A DNA stretch of 64,000 bases from contig NC_092674.1 in assembly GCF_964355755.1 (NCBI RefSeq), positions 7,502,001 to 7,566,000 of the forward strand, given 5' to 3'. Positions within the stretch are counted from its first letter, which is position 1, and the number at the start of each line of letters is the position of its first letter. Shown here in pieces: positions 836-39,625 of the stretch. Below the pieces are notes generated by a model. It was not told the origin of the DNA and made no database searches. It worked only from the letters and a program-made list of their open reading frames with translations. The stretch comes from Antedon mediterranea. Its lineage: Eukaryota; Animalia; Echinodermata. A program made the translations under genes and the position numbers.

Positions 836-1009
836 AATTATGCACATTTTCCATAAAGTTATATTCCTAATTAAAAATTTTCAATACAAGTTGGGTAGCA
901 ATGGGTAGCATATTGTATATGCTTCCATTTTATACCATACAGTGTGTCCATTGACATTTTAAAGAATAATTTAACCCGAAAATGTGTTTTTTTGTGTCAT
1001 TTTTTCGAT

Positions 1010-7449: not shown

Positions 7450-8657
7450 ATAAGAAATATTTGTTTATTAAAAAACCTGTTTCTAAAATGATAGCATGGT
7501 ATACGGAAAAAATAACTCAAATTATTTTGTATTTATTTTGACCGTATTAAATACAAATTACTGTCGCACAACGAACCTAGTTATTAAAACAATTTAAATA
7601 ATGTTAATAGATGATAGGCAATATGTTTGTAAATAGACGAGTCAACAGAAAATAATGTTAAAAAGGAGAGAGAGGAAAGAAACACAAATGTTTATGGGTA
7701 GAAAATTGTTAAAAAATAAAGTTAGGATGTAGACAACAAAATATTAATCGTGGTTATATGTTCGTAATGATGATAAAATATGTTAATTAGAAAACTTGTA
7801 TACAGACATTAAAAACAACTTTTCATCCTTACGATATAAAAATATGCAAGTTTACAGATGTAAAATATTAATTTAATAAAGGTGGCGTAATCTACGAAGG
7901 ACAATCACTGTGACAACGCATTTACCACGAAATACACAAACATTCATTTTTGAATGGCGAAATATATACGGTACATATATATTTCAGATCTTTAATTGAA
8001 TATTTCAGTATATTTCAGTCACTTTATTTCATAGTAGGAATTATTTCCGTCGAAATTGATATTTCGTTCATTATGATAGTAGAAGTTCAAGTAAAACTAT
8101 GTACACAATAAGCATAACTATTCAGGCCAATAATAAATTTTAGCAAAATTGAATTTGTAAAAACAAGAGGAAAATACATTCATATGAAATAAAATGTTAC
8201 ACTGTTGTTTTTGTATGAATTCAGAGCATTTTAATATTTCATTTAATAGCCATCATTATTAATATGCCAGTGTATACGACATAATGATCACCAACAGATC
8301 GGTGTTAAAATAAATATGAAATTTAGGCACAAAAATGGATCATTATTATATGTACGGTTATTATTTTATAGCAAAGTTTTTGCTTATTTATGAACACAAG
8401 AAAGTGGTTTGATGCTTGTTGCAACAGGCGGAGGAAAATAAATTTGGTACTTGCTGGACGTCTATTACAAATTGGGCGTGGCATTTCTCAATTAAAAAAA
8501 CAACATGTTCTCATAATACTGTAGTCCATATGCCCTTAAAAATATTTAATATAGTAACAATGTGTAGATTGATATGGTACGGTAAGGTATGATGGAAAGC
8601 AACACATATTTCAATTAAAATCGACTTGTTCTGTATACTTTTCAGAATAAGACTACC

Positions 8658-9895
8658 ATGGCATCTAAAGACCTTATTGAAGGAATTGAAGGCGCAGCAC
8701 TTGAGTGTCCTTTATGTATGCATCGTTTAGACTATGTTACAACATTGGAACAGAACACCGCTCTATCTTGTAGTCTTTGTAGTACAGCAGCATGTTTCTT
8801 CTGTCAGGACTGCGATGAGTTATATTGCACACCGTGCAAAACTACTCATGCAAAAATGAAGATATTAAAAAATCATTGTATTATCAAAATGAAAGAATAT
8901 GCAGCGATTACACCTGTTGAACGCTTTGCCTCTAAACCAGTGTTATGTTCTGAACATAATATGCCGTTTCATTTCTACTGTGACCCCTGTGAGATTCCAG
9001 TATGCGTTGGATGTACACTCATTGAACATCCTAAATCTTATGATCATAACATCATCAAAATATAAACTGCGTTTGAATCATTCTCAGCACTTTCGAAAAT
9101 CTTTATCGAAGAAGCAGATCAAAAATTAATGAGTTTTTGTGAATTTACCAATCAACTGAAAAAGAAAAAGGCATTGGAGATATCTACATACAAGAAGTGG
9201 AAAGTGACAGTTATAGACGAAGCCAACAAAGCACAGCAATTGATCGGTATAAAAAAGAACAACTACAAGACCTCGAATCAACTCACCAACACAACCTGAA
9301 GTTACTTAACGCCCACGAAAGTGATGCTGAATTAGCTATTGCTAAATTCTCCAGTACGCGGGAAACTACAAATAGCTTACTGATTAGTCCAAACCATGTT
9401 ATGGCACTAATGTCAAGTTCTGCTGTTTCCAAACGAACGAATGGATGACCTTTCAAAACATATTGACATTACTAGTGACTTAAAAAATACAAGAGAACAC
9501 AATTATAATTTAAGGTTTAAAGTAGCATTGAAAGCTGGTATTGATATTTCAAAATCAAGATTAATAATTATATACAAACACCCTCCTTCAATGAGAGTGC
9601 TTCTTCAGTATACAAATGTACTCCCGAAAATATTGATAAAAACACGGAATGAAGTCGGAGAGGATGTGTACATAAAAGATTTGAATATGATATGCCGTAG
9701 AACAAATGAAACTAAAGATAGTAAAGACGATAAAACTTGGATGTTATTAGCGATATCAAAATTCCCTTGAAAAGTTGTACTTTGACGTGTGAAATAATTA
9801 ATGAACCTGATAAATATATCAAAACCATGACGTTTGATTCTTCTGGAAATTACTCTTTTCCGCAGTTAGAATCAGACTTTGAGTGTATAAAATGA
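8658..9895 (+). pseudogene. TRIM-family paralog (B-box1, B-box2, coiled coil), RING mostly deleted, premature stop and frameshifts
   Basis: Acceptor ttttcag at ~8645, then MASKDLIEGIEGAALECPLC (only the first RING CxxC remains). B-box1 CSLC...CQDC...CTPC...H and B-box2 follow. Stop at 9063-9065 with later frameshifts. Colinear with the 6223 copy. Confidence 0.85.
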
Positions 9896-16193: not shown

Positions 16194-19100
16194 ATGAAGT
16201 TTGTTTTATTATCAGCATTATGTTTTACTAAATTACAGTTAATGTATGCTGCACTTGAACCAGGCGTGTTCAAGTATACTGTTTACGTAAGCTTGAAATT
16301 GACATGTTTATATAGATAATAAGGCCTAAAAAATAAAAGAAGAGTTATAATACAGATAGATGGCTCTGGCAATTGAGCGCGGCTAATTCGTAGGCGTCCT
16401 CACAGATAGGCCAAAAACACGAGGGTGGGAACCAGCAGATTAGGATTGGTTTGGGAGGGGGCGGGTGGGGAAGGAAAGTGGTATAGGAAGGGAAGTGGTG
16501 TTGTAGGTTGGGATCAGGTGCCGTTTTCGGCCACCTCGACTTATATGGACTATACCATTATTATGATAGGGGTGTGGTGTATTATGTTTTATGAAGAGAA
16601 GGGTGTCTATTAATGGGAAGATCGACAATACAATTGTTCTGTTATGTAACCTACAGTACAAACTACAAGGAACAATACAGAACATCAACAACTAGCATGT
16701 TAAAAAGGCATGTTATTATTAGGTAGGCCTACTGTGTTAGGGAATGCCAAGATTTTGTAACAATATTACTATATTAACTAAAGATATTTTATATAAAACA
16801 AATTTTATAGACAAATTTAATGAAGAACCATCTACTAACTGGATAAAGCCATTTAGGAAAATTAGTAAACAAGTTGATCATAACGAGTGGTTTTCAAAGG
16901 CCCAAAGCAAAACGAAATTCCATGCAAAACAACGTTAACGGAATATACTATGTATAAAGGAACCAAACCTTGAACAATATTTGTTAGATAAAACTAATTT
17001 TAAGAGTATCAATTTAATTTAAAGCAAGATCAAACTCTCTAGATCGTGAGGGTCGTAGAAAATCCTGGTCAAATCATAACACAGGATTATGTAAGATGTG
17101 TAGTACAAACGAAAAAGAAACAGTAAACCATTTTTTAAAGCCATTTAGGAAAAATAATAAACAAGTTGATCATAACGAGTGGTTTTCAAAGGCCCAAAGC
17201 AAAACGAAATTCCATGCAAAACAACGTTAACGGAATATACTATGTATAAAGGAACCAAACCTTGAACAATATTTGTTAGATAAAACTAATTTTAAGAGTA
17301 TCAATTTAATTTAAAGCAAGATCAAACTCTCTAGATCTTGAGGGTCGTAGAAAATCCTGGTCAAATCATAACACAGGATTATGTAAGATGTGTAGTACAA
17401 ACGAAAAAGAAACAGTAAACCATTTTTTATTTAAATGTCCTTCGTTAAACTCTGTTAGACAATAATTAAGTATGTACCGGGATAATTTTAATTGTGGACC
17501 TCAGTTAAAACACCACTTTATGCTAGACAATTTATTCACTGAAAATGAAACATTAGGAAAAATCTTTGTCTTTTATTGTAAAACATATTTAATGAAAGCA
17601 TGGGTTACTAGATCTACAATGTTATCCGCATTATACCTCTCTCAACTAATTGATTAATATAGTAAACAAGCTACAGACATCTCTATGAGGATGTATCTGT
17701 AAGTTTTATTTATTAGGCCTATCCTGTATTTTTGTTGTTCTGTTTTTATTTTTTTAGTTATATATATTGTACAATTTACGTATTTTGTATTTTCATACAG
17801 ATCTAATTAATTACTTTACATTTTGTTTTGATGTTATGTATTAGTATTTAGAACTTTGTGGCTTATGTTATTTGTAATTTTGTCTTAAATTGGATGCACC
17901 ATTAACTGATAAATGTGTGACACCGATATAAAGGTGATTCCTATGAATAAATACATAAATAAAAACTATATAAGTAGGTATACTTACTTATTATATATAA
18001 AAACTAAACTAAACACTACAGTATAATCAAAATTAAAGCATATTAAATACTAGGCCTATGTTATTCCTATCTAGATTTAAACACTTTAAATTTCAGTACA
18101 ATCGGATTCGAAATTAGACAATCTTAAATACTACAATACAATCGGAATTAAAATATCCTAAATACTACACTACATTACAATCGGTTAAATTACCTAAACT
18201 CTATAATGTTGTGAAATATGTAAAAGAATGTTGGCAAATGCATTCTAATCGGCCCAATCCTATCGGTAGATAAATCATATTTTTTATTTTCTTGAACTAA
18301 ACATAAATAAAACGAAAGAAATAAGGATAGATTTTCGAAAACATAATTGGTCTGACAGTATACATTAATTAAAGTAAAGGAAGTAGAGATTGTTAACAAT
18401 TATTGATAAGTATCTGGCAGTAGTGTTTGACTAAAGCTAAATGGGTGGACATGTTGATCGTAGTTAAGAAGTTAAATACAAGGCTGTACTGCTTGAGGAA
18501 ACGGTTCTTTGGGGTAAAGCAGAATATTTGTACTATAGAATGTTTATGTTTTACTAATCAGTGATGTTCTATTTGGGCATATTGTATATTGGGCTAGGAA
18601 TATCAGTAAGGGAATGTAAGGGGGATAAAGACCGAATTGAGATGGTGCTGGGTAGAGCGTGGAAAGTAATTGGTTTGAGTATGCAAATGCTTGACTCGTT
18701 CTACATGCAGCGAACAGCTTGCCGATGTATTCCATGCTATATTGGAAGACACCAATCATCCTCTTCATGGCGACATTATCAGCTCCGTTTTGCATTCGCT
18801 ATTATAACGTTTTGATGCAAACGTTGTTCAATTAGAACATGTATTTCTACACAGAAACGTTTAAAAACGTGTTTAAACATTTTAGAAAGACCAAACCTAA
18901 AAACATGCAATGCCTAACGCTGTGTTTTCTGGGAACAAAATGGTACAGATTCATTAACAAAATTATAATGTTTATTTGTTTTACTGATTACCTAATAATC
19001 AGTATGTGATAAATGTACTACTGTCATCCTTATTAAATGTACTACTGTGTTATCGTTAGGTAAATTATATTTTTTATTTGTAATTGGAATAAAAACTTTC

Positions 19101-22100
19101 TTTATATACTTTCTGTATCTATAAATCTGTAAAAATTATATAGAAATAAAGAGTCATAATATACTGCATTAACTTGAAAACTGAAATTAATTCTACAGCA
19201 TGCAGGGCGTAGTTGTTTTCCCTTTGTTGCTGAAACAACAAGAAAAACAAAAGAACAAAAGGAGCAGTATTTTAACACATTAACACACTCAATTAATAAA
19301 TGGGACACCCCTATTTTCCCATCTTTTTATAATGGTATAGTCCATACAAGTCGAGGTGGCCGAAAACGGCACCTGATCTGGGGTATCTCCCCATAGTGTG
19401 GGGAGTAGTGTAGGTTTTCAGCGGGTATTTTTCCATAAAATAAAAAATAATAAATAAAATAGGCTGGGAAAAAGCACCGCTTGTTTTTTTGAATTTTAAA
19501 ATAATAATAATATCTTGACACATTTTGATTTTGTTTATTTTAGGGTAACGAGGTAGTTGCTATTTCGAAGAGTATGTATAACAACACCAAGGTGATAGTG
19601 ACAAGTATGTTATCTGCTTTAATTTTTCAACATTTTAAAATTATTATTTTTTTTCAAATATCTAGATTATTGTATAGGCCTACCTATGTCCTATGTGGTT
19701 AATGTTGGAGTTAATAGAACTTTTAAACTTTTAATTATTTATAATAATAATTAACATAAATATCAAAGCACCATTGGTGGTCTGCAAAAAGTCAGAAAAC
19801 TACATGTTTTTAATTTCAGCCAATTGCCAGCAAGATGATTGCAAAATCAACCTAAAGTGGGTTCTCCGTTTCTCTGATTGTGATAATGCATTTGTAGATA
19901 ATGTGAGTAATTCTCAAAGAAATTAAAATTTTAATTGAACATTTCTTTTTATTGTAAATGATTAACTTTCAATCAGTAAATAAATGTTTCATTTTCGACA
20001 ACAAAAGTAACATTGACTATTCATTATTTTAACTATTATTTATACAACACGCTATTCACGCATATTCAACACGCCTACGAGAAGTGTGTTGTATACATCG
20101 AAGAGATTCCGTGTAATGAGATTTTAATTGCAAAAAAGGCTACTTGGCTGTATCCTAAAATTTTGTTGATTCCCGGTGCTGTTGGTGTGTTGGTGTATTG
20201 TCCTCAGGGTATTGTTTTGACCGCTCGTTAAATATAAGCATGTGCTGTGAAAATGTTGACCAAATCTAGTAGATAATTGTGCTTTTTTTTGCATATTTTA
20301 ACTGATTTAGCACTTAACATTAACGCTAATCAAAGGTTGGCATAATTTGGCAAAATGTAGCATAGTTTTATCCTAATTCTAAAACATTTTTTTTCTAATT
20401 TCAAAAGCAGATTTAAAAAATCAATAACTGAATAAACTAAATTTTAAACGAAATCATCCATTTTATTAAAATCCTTAATAAACTAATATTAATTCATAAT
20501 GCATGCGAGTATAATACAACTTAGGATTATGAACTATGGTATAACACGGTATTACGATTTAATGTATAACTGCAAGGTTTTTGTGGGGTTGACCTCGGCC
20601 CGTGCAACACGCTAAAAATTAAAGACATGTTCAAATTTAGGGTGTTGTAGTGTATAAACACAGCCATAGATAAATTTCCAGTCATACCCTGATGAGGAGA
20701 GCCTCACTCAGGTGTAATAAGTTATAACAGCTCAGAGCCATGTCTGTAAAAATCAAAGATTTGGTGGCAGATGTAAAAAAATGGATTTCTCTCAAATTTT
20801 TACCATGAATAGACATTTCAATAAAAAGCAAATCTACATCATTCATTTTAATTTTTAGCCTCCGTTGCCATGACAACGGTCAATTATCCAAATTTTGATG
20901 TTTTTGCCATTTTTCACAGATTTTCTAATTAAATGAACAAAACAAAAATATCGTTCATCAAATTAGTACCAATATCCATTTTAAAAAACCTTAAAAAACA
21001 AAATTTGTCAAAAACACAAATTTGGCCGTTGCCATGGAAATATATATAATAATAATAAATAAATAAAAAACACATAATTATACAGGATTAGATACCTCAT
21101 TACAATTTTGACATGTTAAATTACCTTGGTTCAAAATCAAATGTATAGGTCATGTGTTTAAATCTTGTAATATTTGATATAAATGATTTAAGTTTTTTTT
21201 CTCAATATCCAGAGATTAAAGTGTGAATATAATATGATTTTGTTTTAAAATTATATTTATTTATAAACTGTTAGAAAACTTTCTTTTTTTAGATAAATAC
21301 TTCACTCTTGTTGAGCAGCCCTGAATCATCAATGCTACAATTTGAAGAAATAATCAGATTTCAACAATCTATTGTGGGCAATGAGACAGAAACTTGTGAC
21401 CATAAAACTATGTTTCAGGTAACAAATGTCTTTAGCTATTGAAGAATACAAACAGGTAATACAATGCTTCCTCCTTAGGAAGGAATGAGGGAATACCCAG
21501 ATCTGGCCTGCCCACCTGCAACCCCCCCACCCCCCACCGTTCAGGTTACAAGCCCCGAAAATAGCACACTTTGGTTAAGAAGGCAAATTCAATGCTTATT
21601 ATAACCAGGGGAGGACCCAGGGGTGTTTCCCTAGTGGCCCCGGCAGCACCCTTTAATTTAGTACTAGAGGTTGTTTCTGCCATTAAATTAAAATTTAGTT
21701 CCATTTCATCGTATACAATATCCATCCGGACCTGGAACTTGATAGGCTTAGTAGTTACAGAGTTGCAGGGCATTTTATCATTGTTGAATGTTTTGATGTT
21801 AGCTTATAATTGTTAAAATTTGTAAAAGAAGTAATATAATGCTGGCGCCAACAAATTTAACGACCTTCACAACCAAAATATTTCTTTGTAACAAAATTTA
21901 TTTTAAATGGAATGCTACGAAAATAATCCTCTGCTTCATCAGTGCATGAGTACCTAATAACCAGACAAGGACGTATCTTTGTTACGTTTTACTATCAATC
22001 CATTTTCATTTCACGCAATCCATTTTTCAACAATATAATAGTATAATAATAACATTTTGATTGAATCGTGAGGGATTAGTTATAGTGTTCGACTTTGAAT

Positions 22101-25100
22101 ATTAACCATTGGTAATTTACCGAAAATCCAAAATGAACTTGTGTTATAAAATACAAACAAAATTATTCAATTAAAGAAATGCTCTACTACACATGAGAAA
22201 TAGGCTGTGTTTATACAACACGCTTCTTATTTACACGCATGTTCGTAGGATGCGTGTTATCACAGATCAAGGTCAATCCCCTAATCTGCATCGTTCATAC
22301 ATAAAAAATGAACTACCGTGTTGAACGTTCGTGTGTGCTTTGTGAACAGGAAGTTTCGTCAGATACAATAGTATTAGGCCAAAAAAAATTAAAGAAATTT
22401 GTTGGCCACGCCCGACCGACCCTAAAGTGACGAAAATGAAGGTCGGCTTTTTTTTTGTGAGCCAAACGGCAATCGTGAAACCAAATAGTGAAAACATATT
22501 GTCTTATTCGCCAAATTGGTGAATATATTTCACCTCTGCCAGACGTGTAAAAAAGAAGTGTGCAACCAACCGTGACTCAATCATGCGATAACCGGAATAC
22601 GCGATTATTAATTTTGGGGGGATCAAAGTTTTAACTAAATAAACGCTTTGATTACATAGTGGTTGAGACAGGTTTTTAATAGTTATCACATTTTTAAACA
22701 CCCTCATAATTAATGGACTCTACCAATGTTGATCTGCAAAGATCGTACATCGCACGAGGTTGTTAAGGCGGTGTTTTTTGGTTTTACCAAAGAGTATATT
22801 CGGTTTTACTGTACAGAGTACTACGATCCGATTACGAACTTGTTAAACGAGTCGCCAAGCAAATAGGCCTATACATTTAATAAAAATTTACCTAAGATAA
22901 GATTGTCGTAAGCTCTTATGTTCAAACTTGTTATTTATATAGCGATATAATCCACCCGTTCCGGCATGCATGTTAGGCCTCTCTAGCCTAGGCTTACTCC
23001 TCGCGATCGATCGATGTCTCTCCTGGTGGGGAATTACTTTAAAAACGATAAGCGGCATCTTTTGAATACTTATTTTGGTATCAGTCCTTCCTGAATACTG
23101 TAGGCATAGGCAAGGCTGTTGATTATTACCATGGAGATGACATAATATCCGACGAAAGCTGGTTAGTAATAATTTATTACATTGGAGAGGTCAACTTGTC
23201 CCCTGGACTTCCCCCTCCTCTCGCAATGAACGGCAGTACAGATCTTCCCTATCTAGGCTCTATATTCATTCCTTTTAAATCTTAGGCATATTGCCAAGGC
23301 TAATAATCGATTTGTCCATAATTATTTTTATTTTTCCATAATCTAAGTCCAATTTTTAGGCCAAATCATAATTGTGCGTATAGTTTTGTATTTCCGTTGC
23401 GTGTAGTAGCCTATTTATCTTCATTTCCGTACGTCCATAAATATTAGGCCGAATTTCCGTCGTAATTTATGGACATTTCAAAATTTGAACTGTCGTGTTA
23501 AACCGGTAGCAGAGCAAAGTTTGCTTCTTTTTGCAAATGTCCTATTATTATTTTCTTTGATTTATTTGGGAGTGTGGTTTAAAACAACATTTTTGTAAAG
23601 TTTATAGTGAATAAATAAAAATGAATTTTTGGAAATTGTGGTTTTAACATCTGACTTTATTTAGCATTTTTAAAGGAATTAAAATTCAAAATAATACAAT
23701 TTAACGTTTGCTCAATATATTTATATAGCAACAGCTTCATATTTTTTGTATAACTTTAACAAATTATTAGTTGATAATTAATTTACATTAATTGAGCACA
23801 GTTATTAGAATGTATTACCGTACCAAAAGTACTGTACCTTCATCGGGAACTTCCATGTGACATTCACATGAATTTTACGTCCGATCAGCAACAAAATTAT
23901 TAATTGATAATTCAAAAATTAAAAAAAAAATTCCAAAAATCTTTTATTGTCCAATTGCATACAAAATACATACATGCCATTGGAAATGTGTCGTTTGATA
24001 CACTACATACATAACAATTAAAATTATATAGAGTTATACTGTACATCATTCACAATACTTGTTACAAGAAAAGAAATAAAAAATTTAAATATAGAAAAGC
24101 ACACGTAACTAAAACTAAATGCATTGTGTTGAGGAAAGACTAGGCGTATTGCAGATTATTGTAAATTATTGAAGTATTGTATGTACTATATTAAAATATC
24201 ATAAAAAAATACTCTATTTAAAAATGTAAAATATCGCAAAATCAGTCCATTCATAATTGTATATTTATCTATTGCACTGCTTTAAATTAAAAGTTTTAAT
24301 TGAACTTGGTACAAACGATTTACTATATCTCGTAGTTCGTGAGAGAATACTCCGTAAACGGCACCCTGACCTTAAAAAGTTATACTCGGCATATAATGGA
24401 TGGTTTGTATTTGTCATTATTCGTTTTACAAGTGATAACACTGATTCATCAAATCTTATATTAAGATCTGTTTCAGGGATATTTAGCATTTTACTAGCTC
24501 TTCGTACGATTCTATATAGTTTTCCCTTATCTTTTACATTGAGACTATTTCCCAACACAGCATAACAGAAAGATATCACGCTAAGTACCATCAATTTGTA
24601 AAACATGGTTAGAATTTTGTTATCTACTTTAAATTTCTTAAGTTGATGCATTAGGTGCAGTCGTTGCTGACCCTTTTTATATAGCATGTTTGTATTTTTG
24701 CTCCATTTTAATTTATCATTTATGATTGTTCCTAAGTACTTGTATTCTTTGACAACTTTTATACATTCACCATCAATTACTACATCATCATGATTACTTT
24801 GTTTCTTTCTAAAATCGATAATCATTTCTTTGGTTTTCTTAGAATTTAAAATAAGATAGTTTTCTTTACACCACTCTGTAAACAACTTTATTTCGGTAAA
24901 ATACTTCGAAAGCGATTCAGCATCTTTAATGTTACCAGCTATGCAAGTGTCATCGGCATATTTTATCAAACGGCAGGAGTCGGTGGCATTTCTACAGTCG
25001 TTTGTATACAGAATGTATAACAAGGGAGACAGAACGCAGCCTTGTGGTGAGCCTGTATTGGTAAATGTGGTTGTTGATGTACAGGTAGCATTTCCGAATT

Positions 25101-28100
25101 TAACTTGTTGTGATCTGTTTGTTAAAAAGTCTTTTATCCAGAGAATGATAGAAGAGTTTATATTCATGTTAATAAGCTTGGACAGGAGAATGTGAGGTTG
25201 TATTGTGTTGAAGGCGGAACTGAAGTCAATGAAAAGAAGGCGTGTGCATGTGTTGTTCTTGTCGAGATGTTGTTGAGTGTTGTGGATGAGAGTGGCTGTG
25301 GCATTGTCTGTCCCTCTGTGTGCTCTATATGCGAATTTGCATTGGATCTAACAGGTGGTCACTTTGATCTTTAACACGCTTACTAATTATTCTTTCCATG
25401 CATTTCATAACCAGGGACGTTAGGGCAATTGGTCTATAATCATTAAGCGTTTTAACATTATTTAATTTGGGAATAGGTACAATCAAAGAGTGCTTCCAAA
25501 TTGCTGGGATAGTGGTTGTACGGAGAGAACATTCAAAAAGTTTCTGAAAGACATGTCCTATCTGAGCAGCGCACTCTTTCAAAAGTTTTCCACATAACTT
25601 GTCTGGGCCACCAGCTTTGTTTGCATTTGTTTTTTTCAGAAGGTTGACAACATCATTCTCTGTGAAGTAATCTGCATCATCAGTTTATACGTCAATATTC
25701 TTGCAGGTATCCGCTAACTGCGACTTAAAGTCATGAGCATCAAACCTACTGTAAAATAAGTTGAGTTCTTCAGCTAGTTGCAGATCATTGTATCCTGATA
25801 AAAGTTTGGGAGGACATGTTTTGTTTGATCCTCCAATTATATATTTTATGTCTTTCCATGCTTTCTTCGTCTGCCTATTATTTATATTCCTTTCTAATCT
25901 GTTTCTGAACTTTTCTTTGCCTCTTTTTACAGCCATATCAAGCCTTTTCTGTGCTTCTTTTAACTTAATTTTGTTTTTACTTGCAAAAGCTAGCTTCTTT
26001 TCTACGATTTATGTTTTTACCTCCTTGGTCAGCCAGGCTTTATTATTTGGATACTGCTTTACTTTCTTGGTTGGTATAGTGATATCTTGGCAGAAGTTTA
26101 AATATGATGTTACTGATTCCGTCATTTCATCAATACCTACAGAAGAGTCAGTAAAAATATCCCAATCTGTCGCTTCCAGGCATCCGCGCAACTTTTCGAT
26201 ATTGTCTGTAGACCATTGTCTAACATACTTTATTTGAATCTTTTCAGTTTTTAATCGTTGTCTGTATAAAGGTAAGAGATGTACGACATTGTGATCTGAT
26301 GACCCGATGCTTGGCTTTACCATAGATTTGTAGGCGTCTTTGATGTTTCCATAGCAGAGATCTATAATATTGTCACCTCGGGTTAGACACGTGACATACT
26401 GCTGAAAATTTGGAAGGATATCATCGAGTCTGCACTTGTTGAAATCTCCTAAGACAAAAATTGGACACTCTGGTGACTTTCTTTGCGCGATGTGGATTTG
26501 CTCAGCGATTTTTCCTCGGCTGCTGTTGATGCATTTCCGTCTGGTGGTACATATACGATTGCTACCTTAACAGAGCCAAATTCCCGTGGGAGGTAGAATG
26601 GTCTCATTGACAAGAAGAGGATTTCAAAATCGGGGGTACATTGACGGTTGATTATATTAACATTTGTGCACCACGAGTTATAAATGTAGGCACAGACTCC
26701 ACCTCCTTTGGATTTGCCTGAGTCATCGGTCCTGTCTGCTCGCACAACAGAGAAACCATCCAGGTTTATAACAGAGTCAGTAATATTTTCCGTCAACCAA
26801 CTCTGCCGCTGGAGGAAAATATCTATCGTGTTTAATATTTTTTAAAGTGGGCGCCGAACGTGAGCAGATAGCTCACTAAAAAATTCCATTGCGCATGACA
26901 TGATTTATTATAGTATGTTAGCACGTGCCGTATACCTGTAGCATAGTAAAGTAATAAAATCGCGTTTAGTGTGCGTCCGATAGAACGCGTTCAAAGTTTG
27001 CGGCAAATTTTGTTGTGAGCCAAGTGTTACTCGTGCCAGTTGGCTCAGCCGAAAGCTTGTGCGCCAGGCTTTAGAGGAAAAGAAACTTGTTGTATGTGTC
27101 ATTATGATTCACACCGGTGCGCAATTCAGCCCAGTAGGCTGCGAGTCACAAGTTATTCCCCTCCATTTACATTTAAAAAAAAAATGTTTATTTGCCTCTA
27201 TATTTTCCAGTGTCTTTCTGTTTTACAAACCATTATTGCATTAACGTAATTGAAGTTGACCTTCATTCAGTATCTCATTACAATCTTATGTATACTGCAG
27301 TATATAATTTTAATTGCAGTTTGCAGTACGTGACATAACAATTAATTATGTGCTATAATTTTATTTTGAATTTCGTAGGATCAATCAAATCTTGCAGAAA
27401 TATACTGTTTGAAAAATCATGAAGGTGAGCTTGAGCTTTGCGAGGGCATAAAAGGAGGCAACAAAGAAAAAGGAACAAACTTTAAAACAGAAGTGAGTGA
27501 ATTCTGAATTTAAAACTGGTCAAAAATATTATTATTAAGGTAGTTAATTATTATTAATGATAATCTTTGTTTAATAATTAGTCATTTGAATAATAGTAAT
27601 TAAAAATTTATTCCCCAAAACATCATAAATAATGCTACATATAAAGCTGCATACTGTATTAAAAAGACCAGCTGTCTGTCGGCTATAATTCGTGACGTAG
27701 CAAATAGTCTTTATTATAGAGACCATTGCTATACCGTGGTCTAACCTTTAAGCGGTTTTAAAAAATAAAGGAGTCTTAAAACAGTCTTAAACCTCTCCTG
27801 TTGCTTGTACGTATTATTAGGGACTTTACGAAACACGACGGAAAGCCATAGGACGGTTCTCATGAATAATTTATGCATGAGCTTTTACAATGTGGGCAGA
27901 GCTTAGCGTGAAAGTCTGTTACTTAATTTTACATTTAAACGATAAAGTTGCCATTTTCCCGTTTATGGAGAACGACTATAAATAATGTAGGCCTTATATA
28001 ACCTTAAATATACAGTTCAAATTACACTTAAAAACATGGAATTTTCAAAACTCTAAATAATATTTGAACTTCTAATTTAATTGTTCAATGAAATAACATT

Positions 28101-31100
28101 TTTATTGGATTAAAATGTTAAAAGTGGCGTTTGAATGCGAGGCCCAAGCTATGAAGGCTAGGCCTATGTTGTATCACCAGAGCCAAGCGACTCAGAAGGG
28201 TCCTGCGATACGAGACAGGGGAGGAAGGGATACTGCCGGTTGACGTCTTCGCGAAAAGGTGCGTAACTAATAAAACGGCTATTTTGACTGTATATGATTT
28301 TACACTCTAGCGAACACAGGATATTCGTCGTCCTCCCCTAACCGACATATTTCGTAAAGGCCCTATTGATCGTGAAAGACAACCAATTTAACAAGTTTTA
28401 AGTGAAAATCAAATGATAAGTGTGGTGTGGACTGTTATTATTGATATGATGATTGATGAGGTGGCTTTATAGAAATCTGCCCCAGATTAAAGTTTGCCAG
28501 TATAGACCAGAAATGATGACAAGTGAAAAGAAAAATCCAAAGGCAAATTACTGAAAAAATGACAATGCTGTGGGTATTAATTAGTTTTATTAGTTACGCA
28601 CCTTTTCGCGAAGACGTCGACCGGCAGTATCCCTTCCTCCCCTGTCTCGTATCGCAGGGTCCTTCTGAATCACTTGGCTCTGGTGGTACAACATAGGCCT
28701 AGGCCTGGGTGTCACGAAACCTAAGACCACGAAAGCTAAGACCCCCTAAGACCTAAGATCACGAAAGCTAAGACCCAAGACCTAAGATTACAAATTCTAA
28801 GATATACTACAGCTTAAAAACAATACTTGTTTATCCATACATAATTTTAAACATAGTAGGTTTCATTTATTACCATAAATATAATTAAATACTACCGCAA
28901 AACATAGATAAACTCACGTTATTTTCGCCCGTTGAGTAAATGTATATTTTTTCTTTACAACAAACAAACTTGACGGATTGTTTGTTGGTATATATTTACT
29001 CCAATTGTGTTGGTTCAGAGGATTTTTTTCTTTCGCACCTGCCTTTCTTGTATTTTGACTCCAAATTTGTTAACTGACTTTATCCTGAATACCACACTTT
29101 AAAATTAGGACTTATAAACTTTCAGAAGGAGAAACACATAAAAACAAATAAATAAATCCTTTAAATTGATGATTTTACAGACGTGTTTCTTTGTATACTG
29201 TAACTCCTCCCATGCTCAATGTTTTTGTTTCTATGGAGCGCCAAAAGAGCAACAATAATAGAACAAGTATAAAAACAGAAAGAAAACGAAAAAAAAAAAC
29301 AAAAAAAACTTATTATCATGATTTTTAAATTAAAATTTATTTGCGAGTATTTATTTCTTCGTACTAGCATGATTATACTATTATCATTACAATTTTAATT
29401 TTACATTGTTCCATCCACACTGTAGATGGACTCCACAGAGTTTTCAGCCCTCAATATAATTTTTGCTCTTTTGACGTTCCATAGAAACAAAAACATTGAA
29501 CATTGGGTAGGCCTACAGTCAAAAAAAAAAAAGCGAAAAGCTAAATCAAAATGTAAAACAGCCAGAAAAGTTAGCAGAGCTTTTTGGGCAACACTAGCCC
29601 TTCATCAGTGCAAGTGCAAGTTAAAAGAAAAATATATATAAGTTGAATTTACCACTAGTTAAATTAATAACATTTACATATTATCATTTTATATCACACT
29701 AGTCTTATTAGTAGGATTAGGATTCTGCAGATGATCAAATCTTCCTTCTTTTTAGCCTCCAAATAAAGTGACCAAAACATGGCAGGATGGCCGATATATT
29801 TTTGTGTTTTCCATTGAGACCGATTGTATCAATAAAGTTGACAGTAAGTTGTCTGCATTTACAGTCAACTCTCCCAATACCGGACACCTTTGGGCTGGCC
29901 AAATATGTCTGGTTTTTCAGAAAGTCTGGTATTCGGATTGTGTTTTTAATGGTAAAAATGAATTGGGGACTGTTTAGACTTCAAGAAAAGTCTGGTATTA
30001 GTAGAGTTTCCGGTTTTCAGAGATTGACTGGGGAGAGTTGACTGTATACTCATGTACCGTATACTGTATTTTTTTTTTAAAAGTTAATTCTGGCTTGTGT
30101 AACGTCTGCTTGAGGGGGAGAAGGGTAATCTGTTGAAATGAGGATGGTCATCTAGCAAAGTTCACATTATACTGTGCTGTATTTTATAAACGCAATACAT
30201 TTATTATGTTTTTTTTTCAGTTAATATTGAATTTCAAAATGAGCATGGATACCTATCAGCAACGCAAAGACCCCTGCTTACTGTAGGTTAAATTGTTTTA
30301 CATTTTTACCACATTGTTACAACAGCCAAACCCTGACACTCCAAAATTTGGTGTCGCCATGAATAAACCAAATTTTACTCATGTTCATAAATTTTACTCA
30401 TGTTCATAAATTTTACTCATTTTCATAAATTTTACTCATTTTCATAAATTTTACTCATGTTCATAAATTTTACTCATGCTCATAAATTTTACTCATGTTC
30501 ATAAATTTTACTCATACATTTTACTCATGTTCATAAATTTTACTCATGCTCAAAAATTGTACTCATGTTCATAAATTTTACCCATGTTCATACATTTTAC
30601 TGATGCTAAAAAAATTTTACTCATGCTCATAAATTTTACTCATGCTCATATATTTTACTGAGGTTCATAATTTTACTCATGACTCATAAATTTTACTCAT
30701 GCTCATAAATTTGACTCGTGTTCATAAATTTTACTTATGCTCATAAATCAAATACTCATACTCGTAAATTTTACTCATGCTCATAAATCTTAATCATACT
30801 TATAAATCTTAGTAGTCATGTACATTTTATGGCATTAAAATCATATTTTCTACCAGTCTTTAGTAATTTCATCACATTTCATTTCCTTTCAATTTCTTAT
30901 GCATCCTTTCCTATGCACACAGCTACAGATATTACATTAAATGTGCCAATTGCTTTTCTGTTAAATTTAAATACAATTCAGGAAATTTCATATCAACCAC
31001 CATCAATCATCACCGCATATAAATCATATAAATTAATTCTAGTTATTTCAAATTTATGCTCTTCATATTTTACAGAGTAAATAACAAATTAAATAATATG

Positions 31101-34100
31101 TTGAATATATATTTTGGATTGACCTTAATTGTAAAATTTACAGAATTGTGTTGTCCTTGCCAGTGTGTTAAATAATAAAAAAAACTGTTTTTATCCATAG
31201 TTTTATGCAGTGATGTGTGCTGCATATGCTATATTAGCAGTGCTCTACCTTGTCATGATGGTTTATCGATGGAGAGATATGCTTAGAGTTCAGTATTGTA
31301 TCTGTGGAGTTATTATATTAGGTAAAATCATTGTTGTCTTCTTTTTTATTTACTTCTCACTAAGATGTACATACATTAATAAAGGTGGTAAACACCTCTA
31401 AAACGGTCCAGTCCCAATTACACAGTGGTAGTACACTGAGGTAACCCCGTACTTGTCTCGAAAAATATACTAGGTTCTTCAAAGTGTACATGAGCTAGAT
31501 GTGTACACTGGACCTACGGTTTATAGTTCTAATCCAAGAAGACTCGTTCTACCACCAGAACCATGGAGTGAATGAGCCTCAAACCTTTGCCGATGTTATG
31601 GCTATGTAGTTACGGTTCCACTGTCTTAACCGCTCGGCCTCTTATCCACTCAAATACTTAATTGACAACATGCCTACAGTACTGTATGACATGGTTGGCT
31701 GAACTAAGGATGGCATACACAAGTATCTAAGGTGCACAGATTTTGTTTAATACACATCTTTTTTGAACCATCATTTCTTTAAAACGGCTTTTAATGAAAC
31801 TCTCAATGAGCATCTATGACCTTTGCTTACACGTAGTTCATATATATTCCTTTTTTCCATGGGGATATAATATGGTTACCTACTTGTGTGTAGAAAAATG
31901 ATTAAATCCATATTGCATTTGGAAATTCATTTAATTTTTTTTATTTCAAGATATAGCACTATAGACTAAGCACTGTGGCCGCTAAAGAAATATGTGAGAA
32001 CTAAAACACTGAAAGTTTTTTAGATTCAACAGCTTCATAGGCTAGTGTTGTGAAAAAAAGAACCTATTAACTGTCCCTATTTACATATTGCCATGAGGAG
32101 AATTCCCTCTTTTTACGAGCATGTAGGCAAGTGCATCTATGGTTTTAGAATAAGAGTTTTGAATAGTGAAAATGATCTTGTTAGGTGTACTATGAACCAT
32201 CTGTTACGATCTTCAAATCTCTTCACTAAATGGGAGAAAATCCTATTTTAGTGTGATTTTCCATTTTGTATTTGTTGTATACAGTATATGGAATATTCTG
32301 AAATAAAGTGATCAATCAATATTTTTCAATTATACTTTAGGCCTCCTTGAGAAAGTAGTGTTCTACTCCGAGTACCAGCACATGAACGTGACTGGTTTCT
32401 CCTCTCCAGGTGCTTTGATCTTTGCTGAATGGGTCTCCTGTCTGAAGAGGACAGTCGCAAGAATGCTTGTTATTATTATTAGCATGGGATACGGAATTAC
32501 AAAGTAAGTTATTACTTTTTGTTAACCTCTGTAATAAATAAACCACTTTTGAGGTTATAGTGTAAAGCTTTGTCTACACTATCAAAATAGTTTGACAAAA
32601 AAAAGTTTGATGTTCCCAAGTATGGTAGTGATGTGACATCATCATGTCCATATATGGTGACATAACATTTTTTTGTCATATAAAGTTTGAGCTTTAGATG
32701 ACTGTACAGTACTTCAGAGGACAAAAATATAATTGCTGCATTACAGTGTAAACGGTTAATGTGAGTGGTCTTTATATTCTTTGGAGCGGAAAGGCAGTAG
32801 TGCCATAAAATGTAGCAATACAATTGGCACAGGTTCAAGGCTCTTCATGACAATATTTCTTTGACAAAGACTTAAAACTGGAAGTCAAGTGTACAGTAAA
32901 CTCTATGAGAGCCCGGAAGAATAGGAGATTACCCTGGTGCACTGGTCCGTCTCAGCTTCTGTTGTTCGTGGTTGTGTCTGCAGTGGGTCTTTCCCCAATT
33001 GAGGATGAATATTAATACAAAATACATAAATGTGGTACAGTAATTATAAATAAACAAACAAAAACAAACAGAAAGCTGTCTATGTTAATGTATACAATTC
33101 ATAGAAAATGGTGTGAATGCAACTCATGCATTTTGTTGCTATTTTTTTTTATTGATTAAACTTATCCGTGAGACAATTAAGATTTGTTTTTACTTTTGTA
33201 TATAGTTTAGATTTCTTTTAGTTTTTTTTTTCTCTCATTATGTTTTCCTTTTTTTGTTTCTTTTTCAAATTGTTATGTTTTGTTTTTGGACCGCTGCACC
33301 GCATGTTGTGAGTGCCACCGATCCAAAGGTGAATGAGTCAACAAATAAATAAATAAATAAAGTATGTACTGTACTGTACCAAGTGCAGATCCAGAGGGAT
33401 AGCTAAAAATTATGAAGTACTGTACTATTTTTTGTTTGAAACAATTCTGGATCTGCACCTGTGTCCGTCCAATTAATTAAACTTAGTTCATTTACAAAAT
33501 CTGTCAACCTTTCATTTTTCTGTTTATTCAGACCACACCTAGGACCTCAGTTGTATCGTGTGATTGGAGTTGGATTTTTATTCTTTGTGCTAAGCTTAAT
33601 TGAAGCTTGTTTGCGTGTACAAGGCGTAAGTTAATTCGTTTTAGAATCTTTATTTAAGTTGTTAGTATAATTATGTGTTTTTTAAAAAAACTTTGATTGT
33701 GATTTATTATTCGAACTGGTCACTTGTCAATTGTTAAATGGTTTGCATTGCATCTACGTCCTTGCGTTGCATCCTAGTGGGAACCAATCTTTATACTAGT
33801 TTATTGTTAATTGTTATGGTCTAACCCATATGTTAGTCCCATATGAATAGTCCCGGGCCGAATCGTCTGTGGCCGAATCGTGTTGGGGGGCCAAATCGTG
33901 TTGGGACCTTATCATCCCACTACTGTTTTGTTTGTCGTGGTCAAGGATAAGCCTGGTATTCTAAATAATAGAGAGATTCAAACAATTCAATACAAACAAG
34001 TATTGCACCCTTTTAAATAACTTGTTGTTTTATTATGTTTCTAGAGTTTACAGCAAGACCTTGTGGCAATTATACCTCCTGCTTTTCTTGATTCATTTAC

Positions 34101-37100
34101 TTTTAGTTGGATATCCTTTTGACAATTTTACTAATATATACAAATAATGAACGTTTATATTCATGGAATGGTACAAATAATGGCATGAGGTGAATAACGA
34201 AAGGATATATTTCAATGAGGAGAAGCAGAGTTGAAATGTAATCTTTTGTCATTCACTGAATGACTCTTTTTACCATCCCACGAATGTAAACATTCATTTT
34301 TTACTCGGGGTACCCGAGTCTAGGACTTACTCATTTTCTCCTCTTCTTCCTCCATCTGGACACTATTAAGTAAAAAGTGCGATTTTTAAAGTACTACTCC
34401 TCCCTTATTCGTTGTAATATTGAGCTGGGATTTGGCATGAATATACTACAGGGACATGTCCTCAAAGCTATAGAGCCATATTTTTAAATTTCAAACCGGA
34501 TGCAGCCATATCACGTCTCAAAGATGGTACCGTATAGCCGTATTTGGTAGAGGTTATTGATGTGTATGTGGCGTCATATCCCGTCATATGACATAATTAC
34601 AGCTTCTTTTGCTGCACCCCGAGTATCGCACATTCGTGCTTTTTTGTTAATTAATTTGTTTAATTAAGAAGCCACAATGTGTGACACACACCACAGCGTT
34701 ATGTAGTTATATGCGGCTTCTTGGCGTAGTGGTTATCACGTCTGTTTAACACGCAGAAGGTCCCCGGTTCGAGCCCTGGCGAAACCTTTTTTTTTTTAAA
34801 CTTTATGGTGAAAAGTACTGTATACGCAATATGATATACAGTATATCTTATTTTTATTATTTTAAAAAATATTTATTTTGTGTAATCGGTAATTATCACT
34901 TTTACACATGTTTATCTTGCTTTGTGCTTATTACCATAATAAGTTATTTGTAATTTAAATGGATTAAAAAACTTTGTGTACTCCACATTTTTGGTGTAAG
35001 TGGTTTCGTAGTGTAGTGATTATCAAGTCTTCTTAACACGCAGAAGGTCCCCGGTTCGAGCCCTGGCGAGACTATTTTGCTTAAACTTTATGGTGAAATA
35101 TACTATATACGTAATATGATATAGAGTATATATCTCGTTTTATTACTCGGTGTACCTGAGTCTAGGACTCTAATCTTTTCCTCTTCTTCTTCCATCCAGA
35201 CACTATTGAGCAAAAAGTGCGATTTAAAAAGTACTACTCCTCCCTTATTCGTTGTAGTATTGAGCTGGGAATTTGGCATGAATATACTACAGGGACATGT
35301 CCTCAAAGCTACAGAGCCGGATTTTTAAATTTCAAACCGGATGCAGCCATATCACGTCTCGAAGATGGTACCGTATAGCCGTATTTGATGTGTATGTGAC
35401 GTTACATCCGGTCTTATGACGTCATTACAGCTTCTTTTGCTGTACCCCGAGTATCGCACATTCGTGCTTGTTGTTTGTTGTGTTTTGTTTTGATCGTCCA
35501 ATCAAATGACAGGAATTTATTTAGGTGTTATATAATACTATTATTTTATTTACTAATTTACTAGTACTAAAATTTTACTATTTAAGATTACTATTAAATC
35601 CTATTGACCATTTTGCTTTAAATTACAGTTTTTTCAGGTAAATAATTTGTTTTTTGGATCCAATTTTAGGTCAAACTAATATGTGACATTAAGATGGCAT
35701 TTTCAGCAAAAACATTTATAAAAATGTTTTTTTTAGTGGACAATACATCTTTAACCCTTTGCATAAACATAAGACAATTTCTTTTGTTTATGTAGGAAAA
35801 ATACATATTTATCGTCAATCATTTTCGTCCTAGTATAAATCAGTTATGTTTGAATTACTAAAAAATTTTTGAGATTCCAGTTTCTGTATGTTTTGGTCAA
35901 GAAAAATTCTAGTAAATTACTTGATCCGAATTTTATTTTATAAAATAAATTTGTATTTTCTACTGTAGACTGTACATCAAGACCTTGTGGCAAGTGTTCC
36001 TCTTGCTTTTCTTGATTTATTTATCTTTTGCTGGATATCCTTTTGACAATTTTACTATTTTTATGAACTATCGTTCCCAGACACAGACATCTCCATATGG
36101 TGAACTGGGACAAAAGTGTAGGCAAACGGCAAAGGTTTTTCAGTTTTAAATGAATGTTGTATACGTTTCTTTATAACGTACAACATATTAACCATCTGCA
36201 TACACCGCCTTCATAATCAAATGAGTATTAATATGCAAATTAGCTATAAAACCCCATATTTTCACAATATCTCCAAAACTAATATTCCATTCATTACCAC
36301 TTTTGTGGCAAACCATTTATTAAAGTAAAATGCTAAGCATTTTCATTGACCAATTATCATGCATGTGTAAAAGGTGAATAGGCAATTTTAGTCATGCTTA
36401 AATGATTTTTGTCAATTTTTACCATTTAGTTAACTACAGCATAGTAGAATAAAGTATGTTAATTATATGACTCGGATTACTGTCCTTACATATATATTCA
36501 CATTGTTAAAAACATGAGGAACACAAGAAAAATATTGCTACGCCGTAACCTTGCCAAGTTCTCATTGTACCGCCATTTCACCAACTGTTTTGTTTTCAAC
36601 ATCGTTGCATCCATTGTTTTCCTTGTTTGGTCTTTAAAGGAGCATAAAGCATCTGTTTGTGTCACTGTAAGTGTTTATATTTGACATTTCACTAGCATTA
36701 TTAGGTTAAGAGAAGTAATAATATTTTGAGTGAGGGGCTGAGCAGCTAAATAAGACAGTGGAACCATAATTACATAGCCATAACATCCGCATGTGTTTGC
36801 GGCTCAATTGCTCCATGGTTCTGGTGGTAGAACATATTAAGGCAGAAAAAGACTTGGAGCACGGGTAACTGCTAGTACTATTTAATAATGTAACAGTTGT
36901 TCTTATTATTGTTTGTTCTGCTTATTACATTTTTTTTGTGGTAATTTTAGAAATGGAAAACCCTTTGGTTAGATGATGCATTCTGGCATATTCTATTTTA
37001 CATCATGTTGGCCATTATCATTATTTTGTCCAGCAACCAACATTATGCTTACTCACCACTTACTGATGACCTTGATGGCGATGATGAGAAAAAAGATACT

Positions 37101-38045
37101 ATGATCCCAGACTCATTTCGTATGTTTAAAATCCTTTGTCTAAAGCTTTGTCTGCAATATTAAACTTGTTCAACAAAACAGTGTGATGTGCCCAAATATG
37201 GTAGTGATATGGCAAAATATGGTAGTGTTATGACATCATCATGTCCATATACGGGCACATTTGATAGTGTAGACAGAGCTTTATACATTGGTAAAACCAA
37301 TATATGTATCGAATTGGAAGAAATTCATAGCATTTTTTTTACGCCTAAATGTTTGCTTTCTCCACATTTACATTATTAATTAATTTGTTTTTTTCAGAGG
37401 GCATGAAGATGCGTAATGTAAAATACACAGATTCTGCAACAACTGAAGTCGAAGAAAATGTGTAAGTATAAAGCAATGAGATAGTTGTAACTATACCACT
37501 GGCAACTGGTTTTTAAAAAACTTGAGGCAGATCCAGGTTGTTTGGAAATAGGGAAGTGACCAAAAAAAAAAATTACTTTTTATTGATTGATTGTATGCAA
37601 CTCAACTTCCTATCCACCTGGTTTAAACACAGCAACTACTCTTATACCCTTTTCACATCTGCATAGTATTGTTTGTGATCTCCTGATTTATTACATTACC
37701 CTGAGAAGTCTTGGAAGGAAAGCATAGTTGCACGCTATTTGATTACTATGATTGGTCAGTTTAATACCAGGGCTATACATGTGTGCGCAAAGAACTCAGG
37801 AACATCTCGGAAAAATCTGGGGCCTCTCATCAGTGTGTTTTTCTCCTGAGATTTCACAGGGGATCTCTGTTTTTTCCACAAAACTGTACTCACAAACCTG
37901 GTTACAACTTGTTAAATTTTGTGAAAAGGGTATAAATCAAATTTATATGGTATACATTTATACACATCATAGTATTTATTTCTTTTCTAGGACTGTTCCA
38001 CCTGCATATTATGATATTGATGAAAAGACACTTACAAATATGTAA
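16194..38045 (+). CDS. TMEM87: Transmembrane protein 87 (TMEM87A/B-like; GOLD domain + 7TM, GOST family), 15 exons, ~507 aa
   Basis: Phase-consistent exons: 16194-16286, 19544-19604, 19820-19902, 21293-21418, 27379-27492, 29756-29843, 30221-30282, 31201-31321, 32341-32503, 33532-33625, [34045-34110 or 35969-36034], 36502-36666, 36951-37119, 37398-37461, 37991-38045 (1524 nt). There is a signal peptide plus the motifs [81 protein letters not shown] and GMKMR, which match recalled TMEM87A sequence. Confidence 0.93.
16700..17650 (+). mobile_element. Degenerate LINE ORF2 3' end (zinc-knuckle-like [10 protein letters not shown]) with an internal 292-bp tandem duplication
   Basis: gaaacagtaaaccattttttatttaaatgtcct translates to [11 protein letters not shown]. 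16845-17136 is repeated at 17137-17428. Confidence 0.6.
20734..21042 (+). mobile_element. Internally deleted derivative of the 12306-16030 TTAA element
   Basis: Near-identical to 12305-12497 fused directly to 15775-15895. Confidence 0.85.
23935..26800 (-). mobile_element. Rex1/Babar-clade LINE (APE endonuclease + RT), frameshifted, antisense in TMEM87 intron 4
   Basis: ORFs give [64 protein letters not shown] and [19 protein letters not shown] is characteristic of Rex1/Babar. AATAAA lies near 23943-23948 on the - strand. Confidence 0.9.
27819..28364. mobile_element. Harbinger-like MITE (TIR agggactttacgaaa, 3-bp TSD ATT) nested in a dispersed repeat
   Basis: att|agggactttacgaaa...tttcgtaaaggccct|att. 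The empty site cgtattattgatcgtgaaagac is present in the sister repeat at ~38408-38430. Confidence 0.85.
28707..29516 (+). mobile_element. Truncated copy of foldback MITE (gggtgtcacgaaacctaagacc...)
   Basis: Highly similar to 54722-55512; lacks the right arm. Confidence 0.85.
29862..30044. mobile_element. Tc1/mariner-pogo-type MITE, TA TSD
   Basis: TA|cagtcaactctccc ... gggagagttgactg|TA, a perfect 14-bp TIR. Confidence 0.85.
30369..30810 (+). repeat. Minisatellite, 20-bp unit aaattttactcatgttcata
   Basis: About 20 tandem copies are directly visible. Confidence 0.95.
31380..31652 (-). mobile_element. SINE with Deu/Nin-like central domain
   Basis: The - strand reads tcttcttggattagaactataaaccgtaggtcc...gaagaacc...ttcgagacaagtacggggttac, resembling the Deu-domain consensus as recalled. 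A partial + strand copy lies at ~36727-36870. Confidence 0.6.
32565..32695. mobile_element. MITE family A copy
   Basis: aagctttgtctacactatcaaaa...gtcatataaagtttga. Confidence 0.75.
34045..34110 (+). CDS. TMEM87: TMEM87 alternative exon 11a ([22 protein letters not shown])
   Basis: Acceptor tttctag, 66 nt, phase 0/0, followed by the U12 donor ATATCCTTTT. Confidence 0.75.
34298..34641 (+). mobile_element. Helentron-associated/HINE(DINE-1)-like element, copy 1
   Basis: T-run target, subterminal IR actcggggt...accccgagt and 3' stem-loop gcacattcgtgc. Confidence 0.65.
34715..34787 (+). tRNA. tRNA-Val(AAC)-like gene, probably pseudogene, copy 1
   Basis: A box tggcgtagtgg, anticodon arm tctgt-ttAACac-gcaga, B box ggttcgagccc, oligo-T terminator. 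Two acceptor-stem mismatches and one T-stem mismatch. Confidence 0.75.
35002..35074 (+). tRNA. tRNA-Val(AAC)-like gene, probably pseudogene, copy 2
   Basis: ggtttcgtagtgtagtgattatcaagtcttcttAACacgcagaaggtccccggttcgagccctggcgagacta followed by TTTT. Mismatches in the D arm, anticodon stem and T stem. Confidence 0.75.
35140..35470 (+). mobile_element. Helentron-associated/HINE-like element, copy 2
   Basis: Direct repeat of 34298-34641 with the same terminal structure. Confidence 0.65.
35969..36034 (+). CDS. TMEM87: TMEM87 alternative exon 11b ([22 protein letters not shown])
   Basis: Acceptor ctgtag, 66 nt, phase 0/0, followed by the U12 donor ATATCCTTTT. Retains the conserved PLAFLD. Confidence 0.88.
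36035..36501 (+). other. U12-type (minor spliceosome) AT-AC intron
   Basis: 5' ATATCCTTTT, branch-like TCCTTAC at 36483-36489, ends ...ttcAC. Splicing here joins W|[16 protein letters not shown] in frame. Confidence 0.9.
37143..37283. mobile_element. MITE family A copy
   Basis: aagctttgtctgcaatatt...gatagtgtagacagagctt. Confidence 0.75.
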
Positions 38046-39363: not shown

Positions 39364-39625
39364 GTGAGGGCAGGTGGCGCAGTGTGTTAGACGTTCGACT
39401 ACTGATTGTGAGATCGAGGTTCGAATCCAACTCTCGTTGCATTGCTTGTATCCTTAGGCAAGATATTTTACTTAGGTTGCCTCTCTCCACCTAGGTGTAT
39501 AAATGGGAACCCGGTTAGATCAAGACACAACCTTGCATTAATTACTCTGCATTATGGGAGTATGTTTCCATACGTGTTTTATCAAAATAAAATGACTGGG
39601 ATAATTTTCAGCGCTTAGAGGTTTC
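39364..39625 (+). mobile_element. tRNA-derived SINE
   Basis: A box ggtggcgcagtg, B box ggttcgaatcc, CORE-like tgtatccttaggcaagat, and ccacctaggtgtataaatggg. A second copy is at 54350-54655(-). Confidence 0.8.

Follow-up and report, generated by a model that had tools for sequence, protein, structure and literature searches.

A twin exon 11 ahead of an AT-AC intron in a feather-star TMEM87 gene: a likely second origin of a U2/U12-interlocked exon pair

A 64-kb window of the genome of the feather star Antedon mediterranea (64,000 nucleotides of contig NC_092674.1, forward strand, positions 7,502,001 to 7,566,000; coordinates below are those of the window) contains a TMEM87 gene in which coding exon 11 is present twice in tandem, each copy with a U2-type (major) splice site in front and a U12-type (minor) splice site behind. 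This raises the question of how the pair arose, whether its splice sites impose the choice of one copy per message, and whether the gene uses both copies. Our preferred answer, to which we assign a probability of roughly 0.55, is a young, convergent duplication of exon 11 that is locked by an old AT-AC intron, with the two resulting versions by now mostly divided between a pair of gene copies.

Base-for-base extraction of the splice sites over 32800-37400 confirmed all coordinates that a first-pass annotation of the window had given for this region. Exon 10 (33532..33625, + strand, as are all features of the gene) is followed by a U2 donor, GTAAGT, at 33626. Then come the two homologous exons 11a (34045..34110) and 11b (35969..36034), each with an AG acceptor and equal in length (66 nt) and phase (0-0); 11a has an open frame, and 11b is the copy present in the public protein model. 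The stretches ahead of their AGs have pyrimidine fractions of 0.76 and 0.71, within the range of 0.59-0.82 for the other AG acceptors of the gene. Directly 3' of both exons stand the same 23 bases, beginning ATATCCTTT (34111..34133 after 11a and 36035..36057 after 11b), which comprise a 9-base U12 donor of the AT type and 14 further bases. On the + strand of the window, the 9-base donor occurs at these two places only, and the identity of the 14 bases past it is only marginally unusual (P about 0.06). The donor of 11b opens a 467-nt AT-AC intron. A U12 branch point, TCCTTAC (36483-36489), and an AC acceptor (36500), together spanning 36483..36501, are common to both copies and immediately precede exon 12 (36502..36666), after which a U2 donor, GTAAGT, follows.

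U12 branch points were scored at 15 acceptors of the gene by simple match to a U12 branch consensus. By this measure, exon 12 alone has a 7/8 match at least 9 bases from the exon, and the best matches ahead of 11a and 11b reach 6/9 and 5/9, values of consensus matching and not of a trained scorer. Another branch-like 8-mer lies at 35030, within a tRNA-like repeat. The two exon copies are identical at 54 of 66 bases (12 differ) and differ at 9 of 22 residues. Self-BLAST pairs 34042-34133 with 35966-36057 (87%, E 2.6e-26), a similarity far beyond chance that reaches only 3 bases upstream of the exon and 23 bases past it.

The assignment of the gene to TMEM87, made by the first-pass annotation from the letters, is borne out by Pfam domains, a match to human TMEM87A and an exact protein translation. 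This GOST-family gene covers 16194..38045 and has 15 coding exons, not counting the second copy of exon 11; when the 15 exons are joined using 11b and the AT-AC boundary, the translation is letter-identical to A. mediterranea XP_071950418.1. Both the GOLD domain (TMEM87A-B_GOLD, PF21901, E 6e-11) and the GOST seven-transmembrane (TM) domain (GOST_TM, PF06814, E 5e-61) are present, and the product matches the human TMEM87A chain 8hsi_A (E 8e-88), as expected of a TMEM87/GOST seven-TM protein; exon 12 alone matches Pfam GOST_TM and human TMEM87A. An AT-AC reading of intron 8 was rejected, since there is no U12 donor there and GT-AG at 31322/32341 fits.

The tandem pair with its U2 fronts, its U12 donors and the single downstream U12 acceptor has the anatomy of U2/U12-incompatible exons of the JNK and TMEM87 type, and the interlocked layout proposed earlier (a U2 acceptor and a U12 donor per copy, one U12 acceptor) is present as described. 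The incompatibility of U2 and U12 splice sites is established (PMC8329584). The U2 donor of exon 10 would pick the AG of 11a (419 nt away) or that of 11b (2343 nt away), and the U12 donor of the chosen copy would then be joined to the AC of exon 12 via its U12 branch point (2391 or 467 nt away). Joining of 11a to 11b would be hindered because a U12 donor would face an acceptor without a U12 branch point, and skipping from exon 10 to exon 12 would be hindered because a U2 donor would face an AC acceptor. One copy per message is predicted from this splice-site incompatibility. Duplication itself would have supplied the lock, both copies having a U2 site in front and a U12 site behind. Products with TM5 doubled or lost would keep the frame, since the length of each copy is divisible by 3, and the copies are spaced by 1858 nt; frameshift decay and steric clash are therefore not available as locks. 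The first-pass annotation had gone further and held that exactly one copy must be included. The incompatibility layout behind that claim is there, but the claim is too absolute, as splicing might leak through cryptic U2 sites. A U2-like donor with a 6/9 match, at 34190, could allow a lengthened 11a to be spliced to 11b, and there are four AGs in frame at 54-120 bases ahead of exon 12. The leak routes that were checked meet stop codons within 8 codons. In MAPK12 and CENATAC, a minor-intron acceptor can also be used by a U2 donor (PMC8329584).

The same annotation knew of no such switch in TMEM87, which proved wrong: an exon 11/11a switch is published (PMC6717393, PMC8329584). In mouse Tmem87b, the 72-bp exon 11 and an equally long cryptic exon, 11a, are mutually exclusive by RNA-seq and reverse-transcription PCR (RT-PCR), with no reads in that study joining 11 to 11a and with a cortex-biased use of 11a confirmed by RT-PCR (Olthof 2019, PMC6717393). 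A review groups TMEM87a/b with MAPK8/9 as examples of U2/U12 interlocking (Akinyi and Frilander 2021, PMC8329584). In a count of mutually exclusive exons in human, the U2/U12-incompatible clusters numbered five (0.79%), and the TMEM87B exon pair appears in the accompanying human table as cluster 1748 (Hatje 2017, PMC5740500). For the human TMEM87A and TMEM87B events, a supplement gives Vertebrata as the last common ancestor (Martinez-Gomez 2021, PMC8373072). A literature search, with coverage mostly of papers outside subscription, found, judging by titles or abstracts, no TMEM87 exon switch in an invertebrate, echinoderms and crinoids included.

The crinoid gene resembles vertebrate TMEM87A/B in exon number, the upstream U2 intron, the two U12 donors, the one minor acceptor and the equal length of the TM5 copies. 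Peptides of human TMEM87B in the PMC5740500 table run into 'ISF', which is also the reading of the donor in the window, and this read-through makes it likely that the U12 donor sits at the same codon in the crinoid and human genes. The vertebrate copies, however, are of ancient date, have diverged strongly (9/18 in pike-perch), measure 72 nt in mouse and have a demonstrated tissue-specific use, whereas the crinoid copies measure 66 nt, share 82% DNA identity, and are represented in the model of the locus by 11b alone, the other type being found in the model of a later gene duplicate. Exons 6a/6b (7a/7b) of the vertebrate JNK genes MAPK8/9 have the same interlocked U2 acceptors and U12 donors and the same one-of-two outcome (PMC8329584); the gene is unrelated and is Nova-regulated in neurons, in contrast to the crinoid case, which has no known regulator. 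Convergent tandem exon duplications in ion-transport genes (Martinez-Gomez 2022, PMC9741552) likewise concern one family that gained a duplicated exon in separate lineages. There, the main text has no TMEM87, U12 or minor introns and one supplement has no TMEM87, whereas the crinoid recurrence is tied to a minor intron.

Is the crinoid pair separate from the vertebrate one? Independence is likely, given the nucleotide closeness of the two copies, the distribution of exon types among animals and the published dating to Vertebrata, rather than the tree. The earlier claim of an independent origin is thus probably right for a second origin within the same gene, but it does not bring a new gene to the mechanism. 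Between 11a and 11b, the synonymous distance (dS) is 0.25 (3 changes) and the nonsynonymous distance (dN) 0.20 (9 changes). At exon positions 18 and 20, which are Val/Ile/Leu and Cys in other echinoderms, both copies carry Phe. Twenty clusters drawn from the best 120 of 651 relatives were surveyed, giving 19 sets for comparison of the exon-11 segment; fragments of 46-68 residues were excluded in three cases, and another fragment, of 59 residues, did not match. Two strongly different exon-11 types occur in 5/5 fish sets. Among the 14 sets from other invertebrates, 13 have a single type and none has two types within one gene; the one-type sets include 10 Lytechinus variegatus and 14 amphioxus proteins. 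The best tree (22 columns, 24 rows) places 11a, 11b and the corresponding exon of a sister gene together inside the rows of Anneissia, with a support of 89/90, unstarred. A pattern of common descent, in which each crinoid copy would be orthologous to one vertebrate copy, was not found.

A protein of Littorina saxatilis, P0162, was considered as a second exon type and rejected: it differs from its counterpart along the whole protein and so represents a separate gene. This near-identical second TMEM87 gene has its changes clustered in the exon-11 segment and TM6-7, a pattern that echoes fast TM5 change after duplication.

The sister gene in Antedon bears on what became of the two versions. The only protein to come from a search for longer relatives was A. 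mediterranea XP_071949486.1, and the cluster at 90% has two members only, XP_071949486.1 with an a-type exon 11 and XP_071950418.1 with 11b, neither carrying an isoform label. Outside exon 11, the two models differ at 28 of 458 aligned residues (94% identical), and the sister exon 11 matches 11a at 20/22 residues and 11b at 13/22. The divergence between 11a and 11b (9/22) exceeds that of the genes elsewhere (28/458; Fisher p 9e-6), with 2/22 differences between the a-type exons. XP_071949486.1 may well be a paralogue, as we take it to be here, with an uncollapsed allele as the alternative. The order of events that we infer begins with a recent doubling of exon 11 on the feather-star lineage, independent of the one in vertebrates, and continues with a likely duplication of the whole gene. 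The gene in the window would now probably produce the 11b form for the most part, with little or no use of 11a, and the sister gene would make the a-type form.

Some peculiarities are common to both Antedon models. The start of exon 12 (36502-36549) is 1 residue short at a place where other animals are nearly invariant, and identity over it is 27/55 between Antedon and Anneissia, compared with 33-40 of about 55 between Anneissia and outgroups. The WRP motif after TM7 (about 37020-37040) is missing from both models. No more conventional Antedon TMEM87 copy was present among the best 120 of 651 relatives.

As to the use of 11a, the two isoforms that the first-pass annotation proposed are putative: the protein model of this locus contains 11b, and an a-type exon is found only in the sister gene's model. 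The protein collection holds no 11a isoform of this gene, although it does hold both fish isoforms, and among short or partial proteins over residues 295-420, 13 candidates yielded none that was significant. In read run X1, a contig sits exactly on 36502-36666 and runs on at both sides with the letters of the sister gene; over exons 9, 12 and 13, 8/8 residue-changing codons match XP_071949486.1 (among 40 of 344 matches listed). A sister-type piece from DNA run X4 continues through both introns, so the X1 piece behaves like a spliced sister message that uses the AC acceptor. Another X1 record begins precisely where exon 15 does and departs from the window at 1 letter in 610, so that the gene in the window seems to be transcribed too.

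The duplicated exon encodes most of TM5, as had been claimed, and corresponds to about residues 354-377 of human TMEM87A, a protein reported as a Golgi cation channel (PMC11239671). D371, which binds a lipid head group in human TMEM87A, is kept in 11a and 11b; W376, which lines the TM5-TM6 gap, is replaced by Ser in 11a and by Cys in 11b. Since the exon spans these lipid-holding positions, the lipid gap between TM5 and TM6 could be a point of difference between the two forms.

Several points weigh against a young convergent duplication whose versions have been divided between two genes. Approximately unbiased (AU) tests do not reject the pairing of 11a or 11b with the divergent fish exon (p 0.29 and 0.25) and thus leave orthology unrejected, although with 22 columns they have no power. 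The invertebrate tally was made at protein level, is blind to unannotated copies, and does not include the Anneissia isoforms X1 and X2. No joint at 11a or 11b was found among 15 of 967 joints listed from the read runs, run X1 is RNA by the tool's guess only, and the missing annotated 11a isoform may merely reflect the few tissues sampled. In addition, 11a has an intact frame, has kept all 11 core splice letters and shows a single derived residue that postdates the gene duplication. Measured against exonic dS values of 0.09-0.49, so small a number of changes has a probability between 0.34 and less than 0.01, a hint that 11a is under selection in this gene copy; with a neutral distance of ~2%, the probability is about 0.9. 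That distance comes from the sister-type X4 DNA piece (8 other letters in 318 bases), and the P was calculated by hand. The same young, independent duplication might therefore serve as a regulated, working switch in this gene, with 11a and 11b chosen by tissue or stage to give two TM5 variants. We consider this plausible, though less likely than the preferred reading. The acceptor and 9/9 donor of 11a are intact like its frame, the Asp aligned with human D371 is retained, the segment is still hydrophobic (mean Kyte-Doolittle value 1.35 vs 2.11), and an a-type peptide stands in the public protein model XP_071949486.1; set against this are the lack of an 11a isoform or partial protein of this gene in the collection, a constraint test that varies with the yardstick, and a conserved Pro-Leu-Ala that has become Pro-Pro-Ala in 11a.

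Other histories are less likely. Unequal crossing-over or ectopic conversion could have transferred 11a out of the sister gene into this one, where it would be a passenger that was never part of an ancestral switch. Its 20/22 identity to the sister exon, the abrupt ends of the copy similarity and the repeat-filled intron between the copies would suit such an import, which nevertheless seems improbable: exon 11 alone would have to have diverged by 41% between genes that are 6% different elsewhere, and the differences to the sister are modest in both the 5' (15/319) and 3' (13/139) halves, unlike in a chimera. Still harder to accept is an ancient deuterostome switch, common with vertebrates, whose copies were homogenised by gene conversion in Antedon and lost or left unannotated elsewhere. 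Exon and intron position are those of vertebrates, the AU tests do not object and the 23 identical flanking bases could be a conversion tract, but two isoform types occur in 0/14 other invertebrate sets, the published dating in the PMC8373072 supplement is Vertebrata, and neither copy resembles the divergent fish type. We give hardly any credence to an assembly artefact in which a single exon was written twice or two loci were fused. The intron is rich in repeats, and no contig bridging both exon-11 copies was found among 32 of about 132,000 pieces listed; yet the copies differ at 12/66 bases, their flanks differ, and 2 residues set 11a of the window apart from the sister exon. A short-read DNA contig (run X3, which may be the assembly's own sample) matches 33758-34183 with 0 other letters and so shows 11a to be real sequence, and DNA contigs also match 35625-35944 and 36145-36446 with 0 other letters.

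Pairing within the pre-mRNA was considered as a possible selector of the exon. Positions 35994-36010 of exon 11b are complementary to the start of exon 12 at 36508-36524 (15/17, with a 9-bp core), a complementarity that is absent from 11a; the core forms in the local fold with a probability of at least 0.9 and would loop out the AT-AC intron. Compared with null models the pairing gives p values of 0.037, 0.115 and 0.37 and was picked after the fact, so that it is at most a weak lead. An exact reverse complement of the U12 donor lies at 34200-34208, 89 bases past the 11a donor, in an apparent repeat that starts where the similarity to 11b ends. A hairpin through 34200 that would hide the 11a donor was rejected: it forms with 110-120 bases past the donor and not with 150-300, and at +150 the donor is shielded equally in 75% of 300 shuffles (fold z-score -0.76). 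A palindrome next to 34200-34208 is suggestive of Helentron-type elements.

The middle of the intron between 11a and 11b (34297..35472, + strand) is rich in repeats, with a 350-nt segment present twice around two tRNA-like copies and a very high depth in the DNA runs. These tRNA-Val(AAC)-like copies (34715-34787 and 35001-35075) have low scores (33 and 36 bits) and a very high copy number in the DNA runs, and are probably tRNA-derived repeats or pseudogenes. Two other matches to GTATCCTT, at 39448 (+) and 54571 (-), are copies of one dispersed repeat and not TMEM87 splice sites. Upstream of TMEM87 lie two tandem RING/B-box (TRIM-like) genes (6166-7364 and 8619-9767), each across several frames, and broken reverse transcriptase elements resembling long interspersed nuclear elements (LINEs) are found at 24268-26841 (-), within TMEM87 intron 4, and at 899-2197 (+).

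Because both the mechanism and its presence in TMEM87 were already known, the feather-star gene does not constitute a new system; what it offers beyond that is a likely second, convergent occurrence at one and the same TMEM87 exon and intron. The known U2/U12-incompatible cases are old, and with a young pair one can ask whether the lock operates in the absence of evolved regulators. It also bears on the fate of such pairs, i.e., a regulated switch versus a splitting between gene copies. We tentatively propose, at somewhat less than even odds, that vertebrates and feather stars each duplicated the TMEM87 exon for TM5, the reason being that copies of an exon with a U2 site in front and a U12 site behind exclude one another as soon as they exist, and that Antedon displays the whole cycle while it is young. 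If true, this cycle would run from exon duplication through fast divergence of the lipid-gate helix to gene duplication, with the versions shared out between the copies, and minor introns would be ready-made cradles for alternative exons.

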